Part shown: piece after piece, positions 2,908 through 21,896 of the stretch
How the letters are laid out: every line of letters begins with the position of its first letter
How positions within the stretch are numbered: position 1 is the stretch's first letter
Assembly (NCBI GenBank): GCA_965368165.1
Contig: CBDULT010000012.1
Location: 65,349 to 129,348, forward strand
Length of the DNA stretch: 64,000 nucleotides
Direction: 5' to 3'
Source: an uncultured Thalassospiraceae bacterium
Lineage (GTDB): Bacteria > Pseudomonadota > Alphaproteobacteria > Rhodospirillales > JAPHRK01
Notes under the pieces: model-generated
The model's database searches: none
Told to the model about the DNA's origin: nothing
Seen by the model: only the letters and a program-made list of their open reading frames with translations
Position numbers and translations under genes: made by a program

Positions 2908-4329
2908 ATGGGTCGGGTTTCGTTCTTAACCACCGTCATATACATGATGACAAGCTTTGGGTTGGCAGTAGCTGGGGAAGTCGAAATCTCGGCAAAAGAC
3001 CGAACCAATCTAGCGGTCACTCTCTATAGCAACGGCTTTGCTATGATCGACGAAACCCGGACAATTCGTGCCCTTAAGGGGATTAATAACTTTGCTCTGA
3101 CGGGGATTGCCAACCAAATCAGTACGGATACGGTTCTCATTGAAGCTGAAGGGTTAGATGTCCTGGAAATTGGCTATGACAAAACCACCCTTTCTCCCCA
3201 TACATTGCTCGAGCGCAACGTGGGCAAAGAGATTTTAATTGAGAATACACACCCACAATCAGGTAAAATCAGCCGACAAAAGGCAACGCTGATAAGCATC
3301 AATAACGGCATTGTTGTAGAAATTAATGGTGAACTTTATTCAAAAAACCCTAGTCAGTTCGTTTACCCATCGGCATTTAAGAACCAACTTCGCACGGAAC
3401 CCGCTTTAACCTTGATGGCGGAAGCTGAGAACGAAAATCTAAAAAATGTTCATCTGAGTTATCTTGCGCGTGGTTTCAGTTGGCGGGCAAATTATATCGC
3501 CGTTCTCAACCAAAATGAAACAGCTCTTGAATTGACAGGCCGGGCAACCCTCACCAACTCAGGCGGAATGGACTTTGAAAATGCTGCCATGACCCTGATC
3601 GCCGGGCAGGTCAACGCGCCTCAAAGGGCTATGCGAAAACAGTTGAGATCTGCTCCCATGGCAATGTCAGCTATGTCGTCTGATGCCGTGGCTGAAAGTG
3701 CACCTCGGCAATCTTTCTCTAACCAACACCTTTACACTCTTCCTGGACTAAGGACACTCCGTGCTGGAGAGAGTAAACAAGCCGTGTTGTTTAAAGCCCC
3801 CAAAGTGAAACTTGAGCGGCGTTATGTGTTTACGGGAGGGGTCATTGGGGGATATCAGCGGGAAGAAACGCTAGAGAAAGCCAATCTTCGAATCCGTTTT
3901 ATAAATAACTCTCAAGAAGGTCTAGGTGTTCCTTTGCCAAGTGGAACGTTAAACGCTTACAAAAAAGATAAAGCGGGCATTCTTCGTTACGTGGGGCAAA
4001 ATAATCTTGGAGATATCCCTATTGATAAAACCGGGCAACTTGCCCTTGGCAAAGCTTTTGATATTTCCCTCAAACGTATCCAGACGGACTTTAAATATAC
4101 CGGAAATAAAAATCGAAACTATGAAAATGCCTGGAAGTTGGAGATTTCCAATTCAAAAGCCGAAGAGGTCCTTGTCACCCTTGAAGAACGCATGCACGGT
4201 GACTGGAAAATTATTCAATCAAGCCAGAAGGTACAGTCTAAAACGGCCCAAAATGCTGTTTGGCAGATAAAAGTTCCGGCTAACGGAAAATCGACTCTTA
4301 CCTATCGGGTTGCTGTTAATAACAGATAA
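2908..4329 (+). CDS. Secreted DUF4139-like protein (mucoidy-inhibitor MuiA-like family)
   Basis: The ATG at 2908 follows AGAGGAGAG with good spacing, and the product begins with a signal-like peptide (MGRVSFLTTVIYMMTSFGLAVAG). The ORF track also allows 2884. The block LSYLARGFSWRANYIAVLNQNETALELTGRATLTNSGGMDFENAAMTLIAGQVN matches my memory of DUF4139. Confidence 0.6.
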   Translation: MGRVSFLTTVIYMMTSFGLAVAGEVEISAKDRTNLAVTLYSNGFAMIDETRTIRALKGINNFALTGIANQISTDTVLIEAEGLDVLEIGYDKTTLSPHTLLERNVGKEILIENTHPQSGKISRQKATLISINNGIVVEINGELYSKNPSQFVYPSAFKNQLRTEPALTLMAEAENENLKNVHLSYLARGFSWRANYIAVLNQNETALELTGRATLTNSGGMDFENAAMTLIAGQVNAPQRAMRKQLRSAPMAMSAMSSDAVAESAPRQSFSNQHLYTLPGLRTLRAGESKQAVLFKAPKVKLERRYVFTGGVIGGYQREETLEKANLRIRFINNSQEGLGVPLPSGTLNAYKKDKAGILRYVGQNNLGDIPIDKTGQLALGKAFDISLKRIQTDFKYTGNKNRNYENAWKLEISNSKAEEVLVTLEERMHGDWKIIQSSQKVQSKTAQNAVWQIKVPANGKSTLTYRVAVNNR

Positions 4330-4984: not shown

Positions 4985-5908
4985 ATGCCAGCCCTTCGAC
5001 TCGTCTTTATGGGAACACCTGATTTCTCCGTCCCAATTCTTGAGGCTCTGATTGGGGCCGGACATGAGGTGATTTGCGCCTATAGCCAACCTCCTAAACC
5101 GGTCGGCCGAGGACACAAAACCCGCCCCACTCCGGTACATGCTTTTGCCGAAGAAAAAGGCATCGAAGTTCGGACTCCTAAGAATTTTAAAGACAACGCG
5201 GATAAGCAAGCCTTTATAGATTTAGAGGCCGACCTGGCCATTGTCGTTGCCTATGGCCTTATCCTTCCAAAGCCTATTCTTGAGGCCCCTCGCTTGGGTT
5301 GTGTCAATATTCATGCCTCTTTACTGCCTCGCTGGCGTGGAGCTGCTCCCATCCAACGGGCTATCCTGGCAGGTGATAAAGAAAGCGGTGTCACCATTAT
5401 GCAAATGGATGAAGGGCTCGACACCGGGGATATGTTGATGGGTGAAACCATTCGTCTTACCCCCCGGACAACGGCTGAAGAGTTGCATGATAATCTTGCC
5501 AAACTTGGTGCTGAGCTGATTGTTAAGGCTGTCTCGGGGTTGGACGAAGGCCGTTTGGTCGCAGTGCCTCAACCTGAACAAGGGGTAACCTACGCCTCAA
5601 AACTTGAGAAAAATGAAGGCCGCCTGGATTGGTCAAAACCTGCTCTTGAATTACAACGGGCCATTAACGCTTTCACGCCTTGGCCGGGCGCAACATTTAA
5701 CCACGGGGAAACCCGTATCAAGGTGCTGGAAGCTGAAGTGGTTGAAGCGAGTGGCCCCCCTGGCACTGTTTTAGATGATGCCTTAACAATCGCCTGTGGA
5801 GACCAGGCATTGCGACCTTTAAAAGTCCAGCGTCCAGGCAAAGGGCCGATGGAAACCCAAGCCTTGTTGCGTGGCTATCAAATTCCGCCTGGGGCTGTGC
5901 TGAACTGA
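4985..5908 (+). CDS. fmt: Methionyl-tRNA formyltransferase
   Basis: [31 protein letters not shown] and C-terminal transformylase domain; def-fmt order. Confidence 0.96.
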
Positions 5909-10478: not shown

Positions 10479-10507
10479 TTTGATGTTGGTGTGACTTAAT
10501 CATTAAT

Positions 10508-10541
10508 AAAAGGGCTACGGTAGACCGAAGCCCTTTTATTT
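10508..10541. terminator. Rho-independent terminator after hslU (possibly bidirectional)
   Basis: AAAAGGGCT / AGCCCTTTT 9-bp stem with a 12-nt loop, followed by T-rich sequence. Confidence 0.7.
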
Positions 10542-10672
10542 TACTTATCGACAAGGATGGGAAATGCTTTTTTTCCAACCTTTGAGGCGTAGATTTTACG
10601 GCCTTTAACAGTAACCCAAGGACGGAAAATCAGTTTCTTATCTTTTGGAACAGGTGCATATTTTTTAGCCAT
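10541..10672 (-). CDS. Hypothetical 43-aa highly basic protein
   Basis: The ATG at 10672 is preceded by GGAG about 8 nt upstream. Product: MAKKYAPVPKDKKLIFRPWVTVKGRKIYASKVGKKAFPILVDK. Bracketed by two hairpin terminators. No family recognised. The ORF track extends it to 10732. Confidence 0.35.
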   Translation of the reverse strand: MAKKYAPVPKDKKLIFRPWVTVKGRKIYASKVGKKAFPILVDK

Positions 10673-10812
10673 TGCTAATCTCCATGCAAATTGGAGAGTA
10701 TCACTTTGCTTGCACCAAACTTTAAAAACCACTACTTTGCAAATTGAAGTATATTGCGGTGGGTTAGAGGTTGGCTCTATGTCAGGAATACTCTTACCGA
10801 CACGGAATTAAG

Positions 10813-10845
10813 AAAACGGAGTGCGCGCCAACGCACTCCGTTTTT
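10813..10845 (-). terminator. Rho-independent terminator of the higB / HTH-ImmA operon
   Basis: AAAACGGAGTGCG / CGCACTCCGTTTT 13-bp stem with a 6-nt loop, starting 3 nt after the stop at 10848-10850. U-tract present on both strands. Confidence 0.75.
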
Positions 10846-10847
10846 GA

Positions 10848-12059
10848 TTATGGAGTTATTGCTTTAAGCTCCTCCACAAACATCTTTCGAACTTTTTTAT
10901 ACCCGACTAGTGTCGTCAAAATTCGATAGTTACTTGAATTCTTGCGTATTTGACCAGCAATAATAGATGGGTGAATTCGTTCTTGTTTTGCTAAGCGTCT
11001 TACATCTTTGGCTTTTTTTGTAAAAAGGGCATCCGAAGCCCGTAAGGTACTTTCAGGTATTAATTTTTCAATAGCCCAGTTGTCAGCCTCTTTTTCTTTA
11101 TTGTCGTTGTCGTTGCCATCAAGCTCATCCATGTACCAGCCTTCAACAGTTTGCCCTAAGTGGAGAACCACATGAGCTAATTCATGAAAGAGAACATACC
11201 AGAAATTATCCAGACGATCATGGCGTAGAGTCATGCCAATAACTGGCGTGCCATCTGGTAAAGAGGTTGCTGCACCATCAAGTCGCGTTCGTTCAAAGTG
11301 GTCCTCAAATACTAGGTGAATACCCGCTTGTGCTAAAAATTCCTTTGCGAGTCTAGGGCCATTTTCTAAAGCACTTAGACCTCGTAATTGAGAAATGAAA
11401 GCATCATCAATTGCTTCTTTGTCATAGCTGTTTGGAAGTGTTTGGAATTGGGCTTTGGCAAGTATTATGTATTGCCAAGCTTTTAAGCCATTTACTTCAG
11501 TATTTGACCGTTCAGGAGCAATTGTTTGCCTATAGTGGGGTTGCGCCAATTCTGGTTTTAAAGAAAACTTATCGAAAAAAGCCCCTACTAACTCAGCTGC
11601 ATTTGCTTTAGCTTTTTGCGGGCTTTCAACAATAATATAGTTTCTTTTTTTCATCTGCCATACAGGCAACTCAGGGTATTCAATCTTTTCTAACTGTGTT
11701 TCTCGCAATAAAAGCTCGGCTGGAATACCCAGCCCCTTATGCAGAGCCTTAATCATTTGTTTGCTGAGGTCTCGTTTGCGGTTGCGGATTTCTGATACCC
11801 TCGTAGCGGAGCCGATATATGTGATGAGGTCTCTGTTTTCAAGCCCATTTTGTTCCATATAAAATTCAATCGCATCAACAGGGTCACTCTCTGGTACCGA
11901 TCCAAAAATTTTATCTTCATAATCAGCAATTATAAGCCCCAAGAGAAGCATCCGTTCGTAATTATCCGTTCCTTCATCAGGATTAGCATCAATCAAGCCT
12001 TCCATCTCAATAAGGCGGTTTTCGTATTCTGATTCATTTTTAATTATTGTAATGTTCAT
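10848..12059 (-). CDS. HigA-type HTH antitoxin fused to an ImmA/IrrE (COG2856, M78-like) zinc metallopeptidase domain
   Basis: The N-terminal ~120 aa consist of a helical region plus an XRE-type HTH (ITYIGSATRVSEIRNRKRDLSKQMIKALHKGLGIPAELLL). The C-terminal ~280 aa have HEXXH (YVLFHELAHVVLH) and the downstream KEKEADNWAIEKLIP typical of ImmA/IrrE. The ATG at 12059 (MNITIIKNESEY) lies 25 nt after the higB stop. The ORF-track extension to 12164 would overlap higB. Confidence 0.8.
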   Translation of the reverse strand: MNITIIKNESEYENRLIEMEGLIDANPDEGTDNYERMLLLGLIIADYEDKIFGSVPESDPVDAIEFYMEQNGLENRDLITYIGSATRVSEIRNRKRDLSKQMIKALHKGLGIPAELLLRETQLEKIEYPELPVWQMKKRNYIIVESPQKAKANAAELVGAFFDKFSLKPELAQPHYRQTIAPERSNTEVNGLKAWQYIILAKAQFQTLPNSYDKEAIDDAFISQLRGLSALENGPRLAKEFLAQAGIHLVFEDHFERTRLDGAATSLPDGTPVIGMTLRHDRLDNFWYVLFHELAHVVLHLGQTVEGWYMDELDGNDNDNKEKEADNWAIEKLIPESTLRASDALFTKKAKDVRRLAKQERIHPSIIAGQIRKNSSNYRILTTLVGYKKVRKMFVEELKAITP

Positions 12060-12084
12060 AGCTACTCCCTCCGTCTGTTTGAGG

Positions 12085-12372
12085 TTAAAATTTCTTTTTG
12101 TCATATTCTGCGTGTGTACCAAACCATTTGATGAACACTTGTTTGCCTGGATAATTAATACCAACTAGGAGCCGGTAGCTGTTCCCTTTGATATTAAAAA
12201 TTACTCTGTTTCCACTAAGAAAGGAAACAGAACCGAATTGTTGTTTAATATCATCTGGCCCGTTCCAGTTGGAATGTTTAACAAAATCATACCATACATC
12301 CAGGGCTTTCGCCGCATTTGGGTAATCTCTCTTAGCTCTCTCTATTGTTTTGCGACTAACTATATTCAACAT
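12085..12372 (-). CDS. higB: Type II toxin HigB-family (RelE-fold mRNA interferase)
   Basis: The 95-aa product MLNIVSRKTIERAKRDYPNAAKALDVWYDFVKHSNWNGPDDIKQQF..GNRVIFNIKGNSYRLLVGINY..VFIKWFGTHAEYDKKKF matches the HigB_toxin pattern. Toxin-first order. The ORF-track start at 12432 adds 20 atypical residues. Confidence 0.8.
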   Translation of the reverse strand: MLNIVSRKTIERAKRDYPNAAKALDVWYDFVKHSNWNGPDDIKQQFGSVSFLSGNRVIFNIKGNSYRLLVGINYPGKQVFIKWFGTHAEYDKKKF

Positions 12373-12539
12373 AAAATGCTTTATTACATACCCAAAAAAA
12401 TTAATCAATACAACATTACCAAAATGGGACATTTAGTAGGATATCCGCCCCGTTACAGTTTGATACAAACCGCACATAATGGGGTTACAGTGCGCCTTTA
12501 TGGTCTCCATAGTTTATAAATTAAGGTTGGAGATTTTTA

Positions 12540-13249: not shown

Positions 13250-13597
13250 TCAATCTAGGTCTCTGAGAAGCCGTTCTAATTTATTCTCATCCAGAGTCTT
13301 AATTTTTTCCGCTAACACGTTGGCAAGTAAGGTGGCCTTGGCAGATAGGCCGGCGGTTTCGATGGGGACGCGGGGGTGGGAGAGATGGGCCAGGCGTTTG
13401 AGTTCTTCGGCATCATCCCAGATCAGGCCGAAATATCCGGCAACCTGCATAACAAACCCAGGGCCAGGTCGACCCCGGTGACCATGCTCTAAAGCCGAGA
13501 TATAGGCCGAGGAGACTTCCATATCTTTTGCCATCTTCTTTAAAGTGATGTTACGAACATCGCGTAACTCACGAATTTTGAGACCAAAAGGGGTCAT
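13250..13597 (-). CDS. XRE-family helix-turn-helix transcriptional regulator
   Basis: HTH ITLKKMAKDMEVSSAYISALEHGHRG. To my recollection this is a conserved small alphaproteobacterial regulator. Perfect palindrome TTCAAGGGCACCCTTGAA (13598-13615) abuts the start codon. Confidence 0.8.
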   Translation of the reverse strand: MTPFGLKIRELRDVRNITLKKMAKDMEVSSAYISALEHGHRGRPGPGFVMQVAGYFGLIWDDAEELKRLAHLSHPRVPIETAGLSAKATLLANVLAEKIKTLDENKLERLLRDLD

Positions 13598-13769: not shown

Positions 13770-14381
13770 TCATTTCTTTTTCTTCAACATTACGATGAGG
13801 GCCCCTGTCCCTCCTTGTGAGGGGGTGCCGTAGGAGAAAGAAATAATCTTTTCTCTGTTGGGAGATTGGTTAAGCCAGCGCGGCACTTGGCTGCGCAGCA
13901 CACCTTCTCCCATATAGCCTTTACCTGTTATCACGGTCACGCACCGTTTGCCATTTTCCACAGCCCCCTCAAGATAACGGTCCAAGGCCCGGTGAGCCTC
14001 GTTTTGAGTCATGCCGTGCAGGTCAAGGCGGCCTTCAATGGGGACCTTGCCTCGGCGCAATTTTTGGGCGGTGCGTTTGTCCAGGCCGGGGGCTTTGCCG
14101 TGAGACAACTCCGGGGCCTGTGGTTTTGGGGGCGGCGGTAAATCTAGGGGTCTCGCTTGGGGGTAGGTTGAGGGTTTTGTCTTTTTGCCTGTGGTTGGTT
14201 TGGGGTCTTGGTTCATGTCCCCTTTGCGGTCGGTAATTTTAAGGCGAACCGACTGTTTTTTCATGGGGTCAACATTGCTGGTGACCTTTTTCCACAAAGC
14301 AAGGTCTTCAGGACTAACATCCAGTGGATTCTTTTTCTTGCGGCGGTTTTGTGCCATTTGGCGAGAAATATTTTTCGTCAT
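13770..14381 (-). CDS. Smr/MutS2-family domain protein
   Basis: C-terminal Smr domain LDLHGMTQNEAHRALDRYL..CVTVITGKG..GVLRSQVPRWL; basic and proline-rich N-terminus. Confidence 0.85.
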   Translation of the reverse strand: MTKNISRQMAQNRRKKKNPLDVSPEDLALWKKVTSNVDPMKKQSVRLKITDRKGDMNQDPKPTTGKKTKPSTYPQARPLDLPPPPKPQAPELSHGKAPGLDKRTAQKLRRGKVPIEGRLDLHGMTQNEAHRALDRYLEGAVENGKRCVTVITGKGYMGEGVLRSQVPRWLNQSPNREKIISFSYGTPSQGGTGALIVMLKKKK

Positions 14382-17453: not shown

Positions 17454-18731
17454 ATGGCAGTATTCGATTTTACCCACCACCGGATTATGATTGCCGATAC
17501 TTGCCAGGATACGGTTGCCAAAGCGCGGACCGCTTATGCGCTCCAAGGCCTCACTAATTTTACCAGCTTTGAGTCTGGCTCAGAGGCTCTAAATGCCATT
17601 GATGTTTTTGACCCGGATGTGGTTATTGTTGGTATCGAGCTTAAAGATATTGATGGCATCGAACTGCTAGGTAAGATCCGCTCACACAATGGCGGTAAGT
17701 TTGCCAAGCTGCCAACGCTCCTCATGTTCGACAAAGATCATCAAAACCGATTGAAAGAAGCCAGTAAACTTGGCGTGGGGGGGGCCCTTCGCAAACCCCT
17801 CCAATCGGGCAAGCTTTTACGCATGACCCAAGTGGCTATTGAAAAAAGCCAACTTTCCACCTCTCCGCGAGTTGATACCTTTAAATTGGTTGAAGGGTCA
17901 GGGCCGATTGTTTCTGACGCGCCAAAACAACCAAAGAAGAAAGAAAAAAACCTTTCTTTAGATGGTGCCATGAAAATCGCCCAGACGGCCGGAGCTGAAC
18001 TTAAAAAAGACAAGCCAAAACCTCCGGCGAACCCCCTGGCGAAATCAAAGATTAAACCAAAGGCAAAAGCTCAGGTTAAAGTGGCCCCTGCCGTCGTTGA
18101 GAAAAAAACAGCCCCCCCAAAACTCGTCCCTAAGCCAGAAATTAAAAAAACGGCTGAAGCAGTAAGGGCCAAACCCAAAGAGGCTCCGCAAAAAGCTAAG
18201 GTTGAGGTTGAAGCACCAATTGATTTGGGTGAAGTGCTTGATGCACATCGCCATTGGGTCGATACGGCTCATAAAGAGGGCAAACGGGCCGCTTTGAAAG
18301 CGGTTGATTTGCGGGATCAGGAACTCACAAAGGCTGACCTCACGGGAATTCAGATTGTCGGCGGCCTCTTTAAAGGCATGGATCTTTCCGAGATTACCCT
18401 TCGTAAATCCAACCTCAGCGGCTCCAACTTTACGGGGGCAACCATGATCAGAGCAAACTTAGCCGTTTGTCGCTTGAAGATGGTTAAGTTAAAAAAAACC
18501 AATCTGAGTCTCTCTGATATGCGCGGTGCTGATCTTTCTAAAGCAGACCTCACAGAGGCCAACCTCTCCAATTGCGATTTGGGGGGAGCTCACTTGGAGG
18601 GGACCAACTTAAAAGGGGCGAACCTGTCGACAGCCAAGGGCTTAATTGTCAGTCAAATCAAACGGGCTATCTACGACAATAGCACCAAAATGCCCGCTTA
18701 TCTCTTAAAACAAAACAAAAAGAGTGCCTAG
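17454..18731 (+). CDS. Degenerate receiver (pseudo-receiver) domain, K/P/A-rich linker and pentapeptide-repeat domain protein
   Basis: The N-terminal CheY-like fold has MIADT in place of the DD pocket, VVIVGIELKDIDG with Gly where the phospho-Asp is expected, and LRKPL with the Lys kept. A low-complexity linker of about 100 aa follows. The C-terminus has about 20 A(D/N)LXX pentapeptides (ADLSKADLTEANLSNCDLGGAHLEGTNLKGANLS). Confidence 0.8.
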   Translation: MAVFDFTHHRIMIADTCQDTVAKARTAYALQGLTNFTSFESGSEALNAIDVFDPDVVIVGIELKDIDGIELLGKIRSHNGGKFAKLPTLLMFDKDHQNRLKEASKLGVGGALRKPLQSGKLLRMTQVAIEKSQLSTSPRVDTFKLVEGSGPIVSDAPKQPKKKEKNLSLDGAMKIAQTAGAELKKDKPKPPANPLAKSKIKPKAKAQVKVAPAVVEKKTAPPKLVPKPEIKKTAEAVRAKPKEAPQKAKVEVEAPIDLGEVLDAHRHWVDTAHKEGKRAALKAVDLRDQELTKADLTGIQIVGGLFKGMDLSEITLRKSNLSGSNFTGATMIRANLAVCRLKMVKLKKTNLSLSDMRGADLSKADLTEANLSNCDLGGAHLEGTNLKGANLSTAKGLIVSQIKRAIYDNSTKMPAYLLKQNKKSA

Positions 18732-20825: not shown

Positions 20826-21359
20826 ATGGGTTTTATTATTCTCCTCCTGTTTATCATCGTCCCCATCGCTGAGATCGCCATATTTATTCAAGCGGGGGAT
20901 GTTTTTGGCCTCTGGCCAACCATTGCTGCCGTGGTTGGAACTGCGGTGCTTGGTTCATATTTGCTGCGCTCCCAAGGTTTGTCCATCTTGTTTAGTGCCC
21001 AAAAGAATATGGAACAGGGTGTTTTCCCTGTGCAGGAAGTCTTTGACGGCCTTTGTATTGTTGTGGCGGGGGCTTTGTTGCTGACGCCGGGCTTCTTAAC
21101 CGATTCAATTGGTTTTCTGCTATTTGTTCCGCCCCTGCGAGCGGGGATAAGGACTTACTTTGCCTCACGCATGACCCTCCACACCCAGGCCTCTGGGGCT
21201 GGGTTTTCAGCCTATGGAGAAAGCCGTCCCTCTCAAAGAGGGCCAAATGGTTCGACTGTGATTGATGGAGAGTATGAAGAAGTTAACCCGGACGATACGG
21301 CTGAGATTGAAACCAAAGCCCCAAATCCCGACTCTCCCTGGTCAGATAAGGCTCCATAA
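20826..21359 (+). CDS. fxsA: FxsA family membrane protein
   Basis: IVPIAEIAIFIQAG.. and LLLTPGFLTDSIGFLLFVPPLR. Confidence 0.88.
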   Translation: MGFIILLLFIIVPIAEIAIFIQAGDVFGLWPTIAAVVGTAVLGSYLLRSQGLSILFSAQKNMEQGVFPVQEVFDGLCIVVAGALLLTPGFLTDSIGFLLFVPPLRAGIRTYFASRMTLHTQASGAGFSAYGESRPSQRGPNGSTVIDGEYEEVNPDDTAEIETKAPNPDSPWSDKAP

Positions 21360-21391
21360 AAAAAGCCCTCACCAAAAGGCAAGGGCTTTTT
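21357..21391. terminator. Bidirectional rho-independent terminator between fxsA and cspA
   Basis: AAAAGCCCT / AGGGCTTTT stem flanked by A- and T-runs. Confidence 0.7.
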
Positions 21392-21414
21392 AAAACTTGA
21401 GTAAACGAAGTTTA

Positions 21415-21624
21415 CTATTCAATAACAGACAGGTCTTCAGCAGAAGATTTGCCGTTACGGCCAGTTTGAAGTTCGAAAGAAACTTTTTGGCCTTCGTTTA
21501 AGGTGTTGAGGCCAGCGCGCTCAACAGCAGAAATATGAACGAATGCGTCTTGTGATCCGTCTTCAGGTTCGATGAAGCCATAACCCTTTGTAGGGTTGAA
21601 CCATTTAACTGTACCAGTAGCCAT
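21415..21624 (-). CDS. cspA: Cold-shock protein, CspA family
   Basis: [15 protein letters not shown] (RNP1) and DAFVHISAV (RNP2). Confidence 0.96.
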
Positions 21625-21896
21625 AGTATTATTTCCTCTAACAGGAATGTTGTTTCGTATTTCACACCGCGCGAAATACGGAAAAAATAACGTTCACATT
21701 GTTAGGGGATAACTACGCTAAATCGTCTGTAAACTATCAAGCATATGAGCCTGTTAGTTACTTAGGTAACTCACAACAAATGCAACACGTGAGAAAGATA
21801 TTTAGAGGATATCCAGAAGAAGTCAATATCTGTTGTTTATTAAGCTGAGACATGATAGCCAATCGCCAAGAGATTTTTTGAAGGGAAGGGAGCCCC

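Follow-up and report, generated by a model that had tools for sequence, protein, structure and literature searches.

Zn peptidases fused to a helix-turn-helix (HTH) domain were described beside RelE and PIN toxins by Makarova, Wolf and Koonin in 2009, who listed them as COG2856 'Zn peptidase (fused to HTH)' and proposed a three-component toxin-antitoxin (TA) system in which a protease cleaves an Xre antitoxin, a genomic prediction made without experiments (Biol Direct 4:19; PMC2701414). PD-lambda-2, recovered by functional selection from E. coli ECOR42, is an abortive-infection anti-phage defence that comprises a HigB-like protein (A), a HigA-like HTH-peptidase fusion (B) and a P4 Beta-like protein (C, PF14350) (Vassallo et al. 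2022, Nat Microbiol; PMC9519451). B of PD-lambda-2 is toxic by itself, 'unexpectedly', and A rescues from this toxicity, while C is needed for defence against lambda-vir (PMC9519451). E. coli K-12 HigB is a translation-dependent mRNA interferase; HigA neutralises it and is also the repressor of the operon (PMC2814082). The M78 proteases ImmA, IrrE/PprI and CapP act on XRE repressors, which they cleave once cued by DNA damage, single-stranded DNA or zinc release (PMC2701414, PMC6868357, PMC7907104). Here we analyse a HigB-type gene (A) and a neighbouring gene for a HigA-type antitoxin fused to an M78 metallopeptidase (B), located in a 64,000-nt stretch of DNA from an uncultured Thalassospiraceae bacterium (contig CBDULT010000012.1; the whole stretch is called the window below). 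The A-B pair is a further member of the class predicted in 2009 and partly validated in 2022.

A and B are arranged toxin first, with the HigA-type antitoxin gene immediately 3' on the same strand after a gap of 25 nt. The features of the pair are given below, in coordinates of the whole window.

12372..12085, minus strand: A, a HigB-type (PF09907) RelE-fold toxin of 95 aa (Pfam, PADLOC, K-12 HigB match, motifs)
12060..12084, minus strand: A-B spacer of 25 nt, with the Shine-Dalgarno sequence GGAGGGAG for B (sequence read)
12059..10848, minus strand: B, PD-Lambda-2_B family, 403 aa, HigA-type antitoxin fused to an M78 metallopeptidase (PADLOC, homologues, AlphaFold)
11706..12059, minus strand: B residues 1-118, HigA module with N-terminal toxin-binding helices and XRE HTH (profile, Foldseek)
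11325..11705, minus strand: B residues 119-245, family-specific helical linker region, poorly conserved (alignment, AlphaFold)
10935..11324, minus strand: B residues 246-375, ImmA/IrrE (Peptidase_M78) catalytic domain (Pfam, Foldseek, conservation)
10806..10844, minus strand: intrinsic terminator directly 3' of B, a perfect stem of 13-14 bp followed by UUUUCUU (RNA fold)
12373..12539, minus strand: intergenic region separating higB from the divergent cytochrome b561 gene, with presumed promoter and operator site (sequence read)

The terminator after B has a predicted folding energy of -22.4 kcal/mol (z = -5.07). As this hairpin and its U-tract directly follow B, A and B constitute a two-gene operon.

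Judged by its sequence, A looks like a catalytically intact HigB, of the family of ribosome-dependent mRNA interferases. Residues 21-92 of A match positions 2-73 of the 74-position PF09907 (HigB_toxin) model with an E-value of 2.1e-29 and 102 bits (cutoff 27), and the full-length protein matches PADLOC PD-Lambda-2_A at 6.4e-33. In addition, A aligns end to end with E. coli K-12 HigB (5IFG_A/5YCL_B, E 1e-4) and is 45% identical to HigB of the Shiga toxin (Stx) phage BP-4795. Specifically, A contains GNSYR at residues 63-67 and GTHAEYD at residues 85-91, and the corresponding patterns GNxYR and GTHxEYD are common to A, K-12 HigB and 63 of the 74 aligned A proteins of the family; the two motifs are the presumed HigB active site, with a putative catalytic role. 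The longest open reading frame (ORF) for A starts at 12432 and would encode 115 aa, but two facts favour the 95-aa form: alignments to the family models begin at its residue 2-3, and homologues measure 92-100 aa.

B matches PADLOC PD-Lambda-2_B nearly from end to end (2.4e-126, residues 1-397 of 403 on model positions 1-399 of 402). Its N-terminal segment is of HigA type: the B-family profile matches E. coli HigA (5IFG_B/5YCL_A) at 1.4e-14, with B residues 6-112 aligned to HigA residues 21-131, and Foldseek places the modelled segment on 6KML_B and 6JQ4 at probability 1.0, although the Pfam model HTH_3 is sub-threshold (14.6 bits vs 23). Residues 268-357 match PF06114 (Peptidase_M78) at 2.4e-8 and 34.3 bits (cutoff 22). 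These results bear out an earlier description made from the letters alone (the sequence-only reading), which had placed a 95-aa HigB/RelE-fold toxin 25 nt ahead of a 403-aa protein with a HigA-type, XRE HTH-containing N-terminus; its coordinates and motifs are exact, with both genes on the minus strand, and two of the three Pfam families that it named, HigB_toxin and Peptidase_M78, are found above their cutoffs.

The C-terminal part of B carries FHELAHVVLH, in which HExxH corresponds to residues 292-296 (nt 11186..11172), as well as the acidic motif KEKEADNWAIEKLIP. H292, E293, H296 and E322 are invariant in 83 of 83 aligned B sequences, H300 is present in all but one, and position 326, an aspartate in B, is D or N across the alignment. 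The sequence-only reading was right about a metallopeptidase with an intact HExxH and acidic motif but overestimated its size, as it assigned ~280 aa to the ImmA/IrrE domain and the recognisable M78 catalytic domain covers only ~130 aa (~residues 246-375). The preceding residues, ~120-245, are helical, poorly conserved and specific to the B family, and a GAF-like C-terminal domain was not detected in B.

The AlphaFold model of B, with a mean predicted local distance difference test (pLDDT) score of 87.4, contains a helical HigA module at residues 9-117, low-confidence loops at 121-125 and 178-183, then a helical region, a beta-sheet at 248-276 and the HExxH helix at 283-300. Both loops are candidates for a cleavage site or a hinge. 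Foldseek matches the C-terminal part of B to PprI (8SLN), CapP (7T5T) and IrrE (3DTE) at probability 1.0, and the best neighbours of B overall in the PDB are E. coli HigA and the M78 proteases PprI/IrrE and CapP (E ~0.005-0.04).

The HigA module of B also has relatives outside the fusion. Residues 1-120 are 40-47% identical to HigA-type proteins of plasmids and of the immunity regions of Stx phages, which adjoin HigB genes and occur stand-alone or with other C-terminal extensions. In Stx phages (L089, BP-4795, NC_004813.1 8212-10956; numbers with L denote loci of our collection), a gene for a 95-aa HigB lies next to cI and is followed by a gene for a 218-aa protein. The first 120 residues of the BP-4795 protein are 47% identical to the HigA module of B, and its C-terminal extension is unrelated and uncharacterised. 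The same toxin/HigA core thus carries different C-terminal domains.

The fusion itself is widespread. A full HMMER scan at the level of 50% identity clusters (E<=1e-30) shows that the B family comprises 441 representative clusters, nearly all ~400 aa long and aligned end to end, and a scan of species-representative genomes finds relatives in at least 592 species; the window's own genome is not among the related loci from that scan. The family is present in Proteobacteria, Cyanobacteria, Chloroflexota, Verrucomicrobiota, Spirochaetes, the Candidate Phyla Radiation and others, and the NCBI pipeline already annotates pairs of this kind as 'HigB family toxin' and 'ImmA/IrrE family metallo-endopeptidase'. 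Relatives are located in integrative elements, plasmids and defence neighbourhoods (integrase, PglZ, SNF2, type I restriction-modification, SIR2), and the nearest relative of B, 54% identical, lies within an integrase-bearing element.

We scanned 84 related loci, 81 from metagenomes or GTDB and three E. coli three-gene loci, and found B in 82 of them. Immediately 5' of B, 74 of these 82 loci carry a HigB-like gene, and ~20 have a Beta_protein gene 3' of B; seven examples of the latter, tested with PADLOC PD-Lambda-2_C, match at 1e-38 to 1e-158. Where an A gene is recognised and the downstream sequence is readable, 44 of 65 loci have no Beta_protein gene. The genes 3' of B in the two-gene loci vary (PglZ, an SNF2 helicase, a Prok-E2/multiubiquitin protein, RadC and others), and no other recurring neighbour was found in these loci; A+B is the conserved autonomous unit. 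In a neighbour-joining tree of 83 B sequences, built without support values, the C-bearing loci group together, and the window and its closest relative, L004, branch next to that group. As a separate observation, seven three-gene loci contain a conserved gene of ~204 aa convergent to the Beta_protein gene (e.g. L039 2786-3400, minus strand), which may be a further accessory of PD-lambda-2-like systems.

The third gene of PD-lambda-2 was sought in the window with a hidden Markov model (HMM) of 11 C proteins, which matches none of all ORFs of at least 30 aa, whereas the same model finds C in ~20 related loci. A 63-aa ORF downstream of B has no PADLOC or Pfam match.

Alignment of the A proteins separates two classes. 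Among the 74 aligned sequences, 63 are canonical, with GNxYR and GTHxEYD kept, and 11 are shorter and without both motifs (L012, L034, L040, L046, L050, L051, L057, L063 and L085-L087); this degenerate class includes all three E. coli three-gene loci retrieved (L085, L086 and L087). A third gene accompanies degenerate A in all ten loci that could be judged (nine have C, and one, L012, has a small gene termed S below), compared with 12 of 55 loci with canonical A, a difference that gives 3.6e-6 in a Fisher test on loci that are not phylogenetically independent, the degenerate class representing at most two lineages. To judge from its sequence, A of the E. coli PD-lambda-2 type has probably lost the RNase site. 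As A in the window looks intact, the 'reversed' toxicity of the E. coli system is not simply transferable to this locus, and because A keeps GNxYR and GTHxEYD, the classical reading of HigB as the toxin has more to recommend it in the window than in E. coli. Of the E. coli loci, L087 has an operon of 2,625 nt, exactly as long as the published ECOR42 coordinates; it encodes an A of 92 aa, fitting published HHpred ranges that reach residue 92, and the HTH and M78 domains have the same positions in its B. An accession look-up did not return RCO93355-57, and the identity of L087 with the ECOR42 system is thus unconfirmed by accession.

By analogy with these systems, we propose, as the most likely function, that A and B restrain each other in a TA module in which the protease acts as the switch, a proposal that we put at an even chance. 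It is made because B of the E. coli relative is toxic by itself and silenced by A. Homology to E. coli HigBA suggests that B would bind A through its HigA-like N-terminal module and would probably repress its own operon through the HTH, and the two proteins would be mutually restrained within a single complex. If a cue activates or releases the protease, or removes A, this complex would fall apart, possibly because B cuts its own linker, another B chain or some other target; freed HigB would then arrest translation, perhaps joined by a toxic effect of the free protease itself. A phage-derived signal is also named as a cue for related M78 enzymes. Self- or trans-cleavage of the HTH linker of B, as put forward in the sequence-only reading, is purely conjectural.

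Several observations weigh against mutual restraint with a protease switch. The only tested relative, with 34% identity in B, ~21% in A and an A of the degenerate class, behaved in the opposite way to classical HigBA and needed a third gene absent here, and for two-gene members with canonical HigB there is no experiment on record. The assignment of B to M78 by structure is itself marginal (Foldseek E 0.009-0.036, TM scores 0.2-0.34, with a multidomain query), and the B-family sequence profile finds no solved M78 structure at E<=0.01. The window contains no tRNA or integrase and no phage-defence neighbours of A-B. Upstream of A, a consensus scan gave no convincing sigma-70 promoter, and nothing convincing as an operator was found there: a palindrome like that of the closest homologue, L004, is missing, and the candidate operator ACTGTAAC, whose sole two copies in the window both lie upstream of A (12452-12459 and 12484-12491), is a weak repeat, as at least two copies occur somewhere in the window in 13 of 100 shuffles. 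A plain addiction or selfish role of A-B is equally compatible with the data. The idea of a protease-linked TA or abortive-infection module, as the sequence-only reading had it, agrees with family knowledge; since the only tested relative needed C, which is absent here, a phage-defence role is unproven for this locus.

The strongest rival explanation is that roles are reversed as in PD-lambda-2, with B being the toxin, either as an unrestrained metalloprotease or via its HTH, and A only the antidote; without C there would be no phage defence, and the pair would persist as an addiction module. The behaviour of the E. coli relative, in which B alone is toxic, A rescues and C is required for defence (PMC9519451), speaks for this explanation, as do the family-wide conservation of the B catalytic residues and the lack of C in the window. 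It is nevertheless unlikely, if worth taking seriously, in view of the A proteins: the E. coli-type A (L085-L087) lacks GNxYR and the whole C-terminal GTHxEYD segment, whereas both are retained by A in the window and by 63 of 74 family members, a pattern that speaks for selection on RNase activity in the subfamily to which A belongs. Moreover, A is close to the HigB of a higBA-like pair of an Stx phage, at the 45% identity noted above. The roles of HigB as toxin and fusion as antitoxin in the sequence-only reading are reversed in the E. coli relative (PMC9519451) and favoured by the HigB motifs of A.

A second rival involves a small gene, S, that lies downstream of the operon:

10541..10672, minus strand: S, gene for a 43-aa basic protein, with its own ribosome-binding site (RBS) (family, gene neighbourhoods)
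10505..10540, minus strand: terminator hairpin 3' of S, possibly placed to serve the convergent hslU too (RNA fold)

S lies 175 nt past the B stop, beyond the B terminator, and has a GGAG RBS and a terminator of -20.7 kcal/mol (z = -5.78). It was called by independent gene callers on three metagenomic contigs with the same locus. The protein has an isoelectric point of 10.5 and belongs to a family of 42-49-aa proteins with the invariant pattern IFR...A...G...A.PILV. Searches of S against Pfam and NCBIfam gave no match; the only match is phrog_33859, a phage family of unknown function, which is matched by 8 of 11 S-family members. The AlphaFold model of S (pLDDT 84) is a confident small beta-rich fold with no meaningful match in a fold search against the PDB.

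Of nine clusters and nine viral contigs read, eight and seven, respectively, have the S-family gene 130-185 nt downstream of an M78 gene on the same strand, and the upstream peptidases of the viral contigs all match PF06114 (7 of 7, 1e-12 to 1e-15). The upstream module is HigB plus HigA::M78 in the window, L012, L091-93, L099, L103 and L104; a split pair of XRE (~120-150 aa) and M78 (~180-220 aa) in L098, L101, L107, L108, L110, L111 and L114; and a simple XRE::M78 fusion in L109. As S follows XRE-M78 with or without HigB, it is most likely tied to the repressor-protease switch itself. On the basis of gene neighbourhood alone, S is probably a functional partner or output of this switch, and within the B family it occurs now and then as an alternative third gene (2 of 82 genome loci). 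The S-bearing loci further share a perfect inverted repeat of 9-13 bp with a 6-nt spacer immediately after the M78 stop codon, whose arm sequences differ by locus while the structure is kept; a clear U-tract is present in the window only.

Post-M78 hairpins: window 10813-10844; L012 ~5203-5232; L091 ~3355-3385; L098 ~3350-3375

The S neighbourhoods would fit a repressor-protease switch of the ImmR/ImmA, DdrO/IrrE or CapH/CapP type, in which the output is S or a CapH-like XRE protein encoded at 13250-13597 and HigB is an accessory. Its support comes from the recurrence of S-family genes behind split, fused and HigB-associated XRE+M78 modules, and from the match of the XRE protein to PADLOC capH at 3.5e-6. 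We consider it improbable, since S is rare in the B family, since no motif is common to the A-upstream and B-S intergenic regions in five loci (counts do not exceed the shuffled expectation), and since the CapH-like XRE gene lies outside the low-GC segment that holds A, B and S, beyond an opposite-strand gene, with no XRE neighbour recurring in related loci. For the same reasons of position and recurrence, this XRE protein is unsupported as a trans substrate of the M78 domain. The gene in question (window 13250-13597, minus strand) encodes a 115-aa XRE-family HTH protein that matches PADLOC capH over its full length, and adjoins an Smr-domain gene (13770-14381).

A wider role for S can be imagined, in which it is a third component of XRE-M78 switches generally, either as a derepressed output or effector or as an activator of the protease. 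The segment would then be a three-part device in which inactivation of the HigA HTH by the protease releases HigB and turns on S, S would be an alternative to the Beta-protein arm, and the pattern across the family would reflect a stepwise handover of killing from HigB, suggested by the fact that degenerate HigB always occurs with a third gene and canonical HigB usually without. We regard this extended picture as doubtful. If S were a general partner of ImmA/IrrE-type switches, this would have a bearing on induction circuits of prophages and of integrative and conjugative elements (ICEs).

The least probable explanation is an ordinary higBA pair with an incidental extra domain, the protease acting on an unrelated substrate or being vestigial and HigB being freed by Lon/Clp turnover of B: the HigA module is self-sufficient elsewhere, as it is found beside the same HigB type alone (~120 aa, plasmids) or otherwise extended (218 aa, BP-4795), but the ~400-aa fusion is conserved end to end in 441 clusters with HExxH...E invariant, which is unexpected for a vestigial domain, and the E. 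coli fusion has its own toxicity (PMC9519451).

The A-B-S stretch is a small (~2 kb) low-GC islet, horizontally acquired, between hslU and the cytochrome b561 gene. GC content is 0.35-0.46 from the hslU stop (10478) to the cytochrome b561 start (12540) and 0.50-0.55 in the flanks. The islet is flanked by housekeeping genes (hslVU, cytochrome b561, Smr and LutABC, with Fur, Ros/MucR, MiaB and SecB farther off), and no credible direct repeats that could be insertion scars flank it. The surrounding chromosome looks alphaproteobacterial, as its Ros/MucR regulator suggests. Elsewhere in the window and unrelated to A-B, a match to the Rfam cspA thermoregulator (21359-21774, minus strand; 81.6 bits against a gathering threshold of 78) precedes a cold-shock-type gene region, and a 425-aa protein of unusual architecture, a response-regulator receiver fused to pentapeptide repeats, is encoded at 17454-18731 on the plus strand, where the local GC content over a kilobase is 0.444, lower than the surroundings.

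The pair shares some features with each of several known systems. Rosmer (RmrT/RmrA) has in RmrA an HTH and M78 protein with a toxin partner, but that toxin differs from the HigB-type A. Membership of A-B in the Rosmer or CapP systems was considered and rejected, because the matches are only partial (57-129 residues, E 6e-6 to 6e-3) and cover the HExxH core; the best RmrA match of B extends over 62 residues (6.4e-6), and no RmrT gene or genes of the cyclic oligonucleotide-based anti-phage signalling system (CBASS) lie near A-B. ImmA/ImmR of ICEBs1, IrrE(PprI)/DdrO of Deinococcus and CapP/CapH likewise combine an HExxH...E M78 domain with an XRE HTH as functional partner, whereas in the window a single polypeptide unites the protease with an HTH of HigA type, and the partner is a RelE-fold toxin. 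Sequence similarity of these systems to B is confined to the metal-binding core (PADLOC capP, 2.9e-5 over 68 residues).

E. coli K-12 HigB-HigA (ygjN-ygjM; 5IFG, 6KML) resembles the pair in its toxin-first operon, in the full-length alignment of A and in the C-terminal motif, THKEYD in K-12 and THAEYD here. In contrast, K-12 HigA is a stand-alone protein of 138 aa, while the HigA module in the window is the N-terminal third of a 403-aa metalloprotease protein. With respect to the class of Makarova et al., the pair is exactly the predicted COG2856-Xre fusion with a RelE-family toxin; the 2009 study did not separate canonical from degenerate HigB partners or note Beta-protein or small-protein third genes. 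In the literature searched, we likewise did not find the canonical/degenerate HigB split, the link of the degenerate class to a third gene or S as a companion of XRE-M78, nor did we find a mechanistic study of PD-lambda-2 or of HigB with HigA::M78 pairs.

PD-lambda-2 is the closest system: the order and architecture of the first two genes are the same, including the ~400-aa fusion, and B is 33-35% identical end to end to B of the E. coli three-gene loci. The notion in the sequence-only reading that such modules had only been predicted computationally does not hold, as A+B is the core of this validated abortive-infection system (PMC9519451), and the large B family thus includes an anti-phage system with toxin and antitoxin roles reversed from those expected. 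The differences lie in the third gene, in A and in one residue of B. Specifically, the window has a terminator after B and the 43-aa S instead of C (Beta_protein, ~375 aa); A is a canonical HigB, whereas the E. coli-type A proteins are 86-92 aa long, lack GNxYR and GTHxEYD and show ~21% identity or no significant similarity to it; and D326 of B is Asn in the E. coli proteins. The family provides a natural comparison set, with two-gene loci with an intact-looking HigB in the majority, three-gene loci with a degenerate HigB and a Beta protein, and a few loci with a small protein. This set makes it testable which partner kills and what the protease cuts, and the two-gene (+S) form with an intact-looking HigB is a good experimental counterpart to E. 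coli PD-lambda-2.

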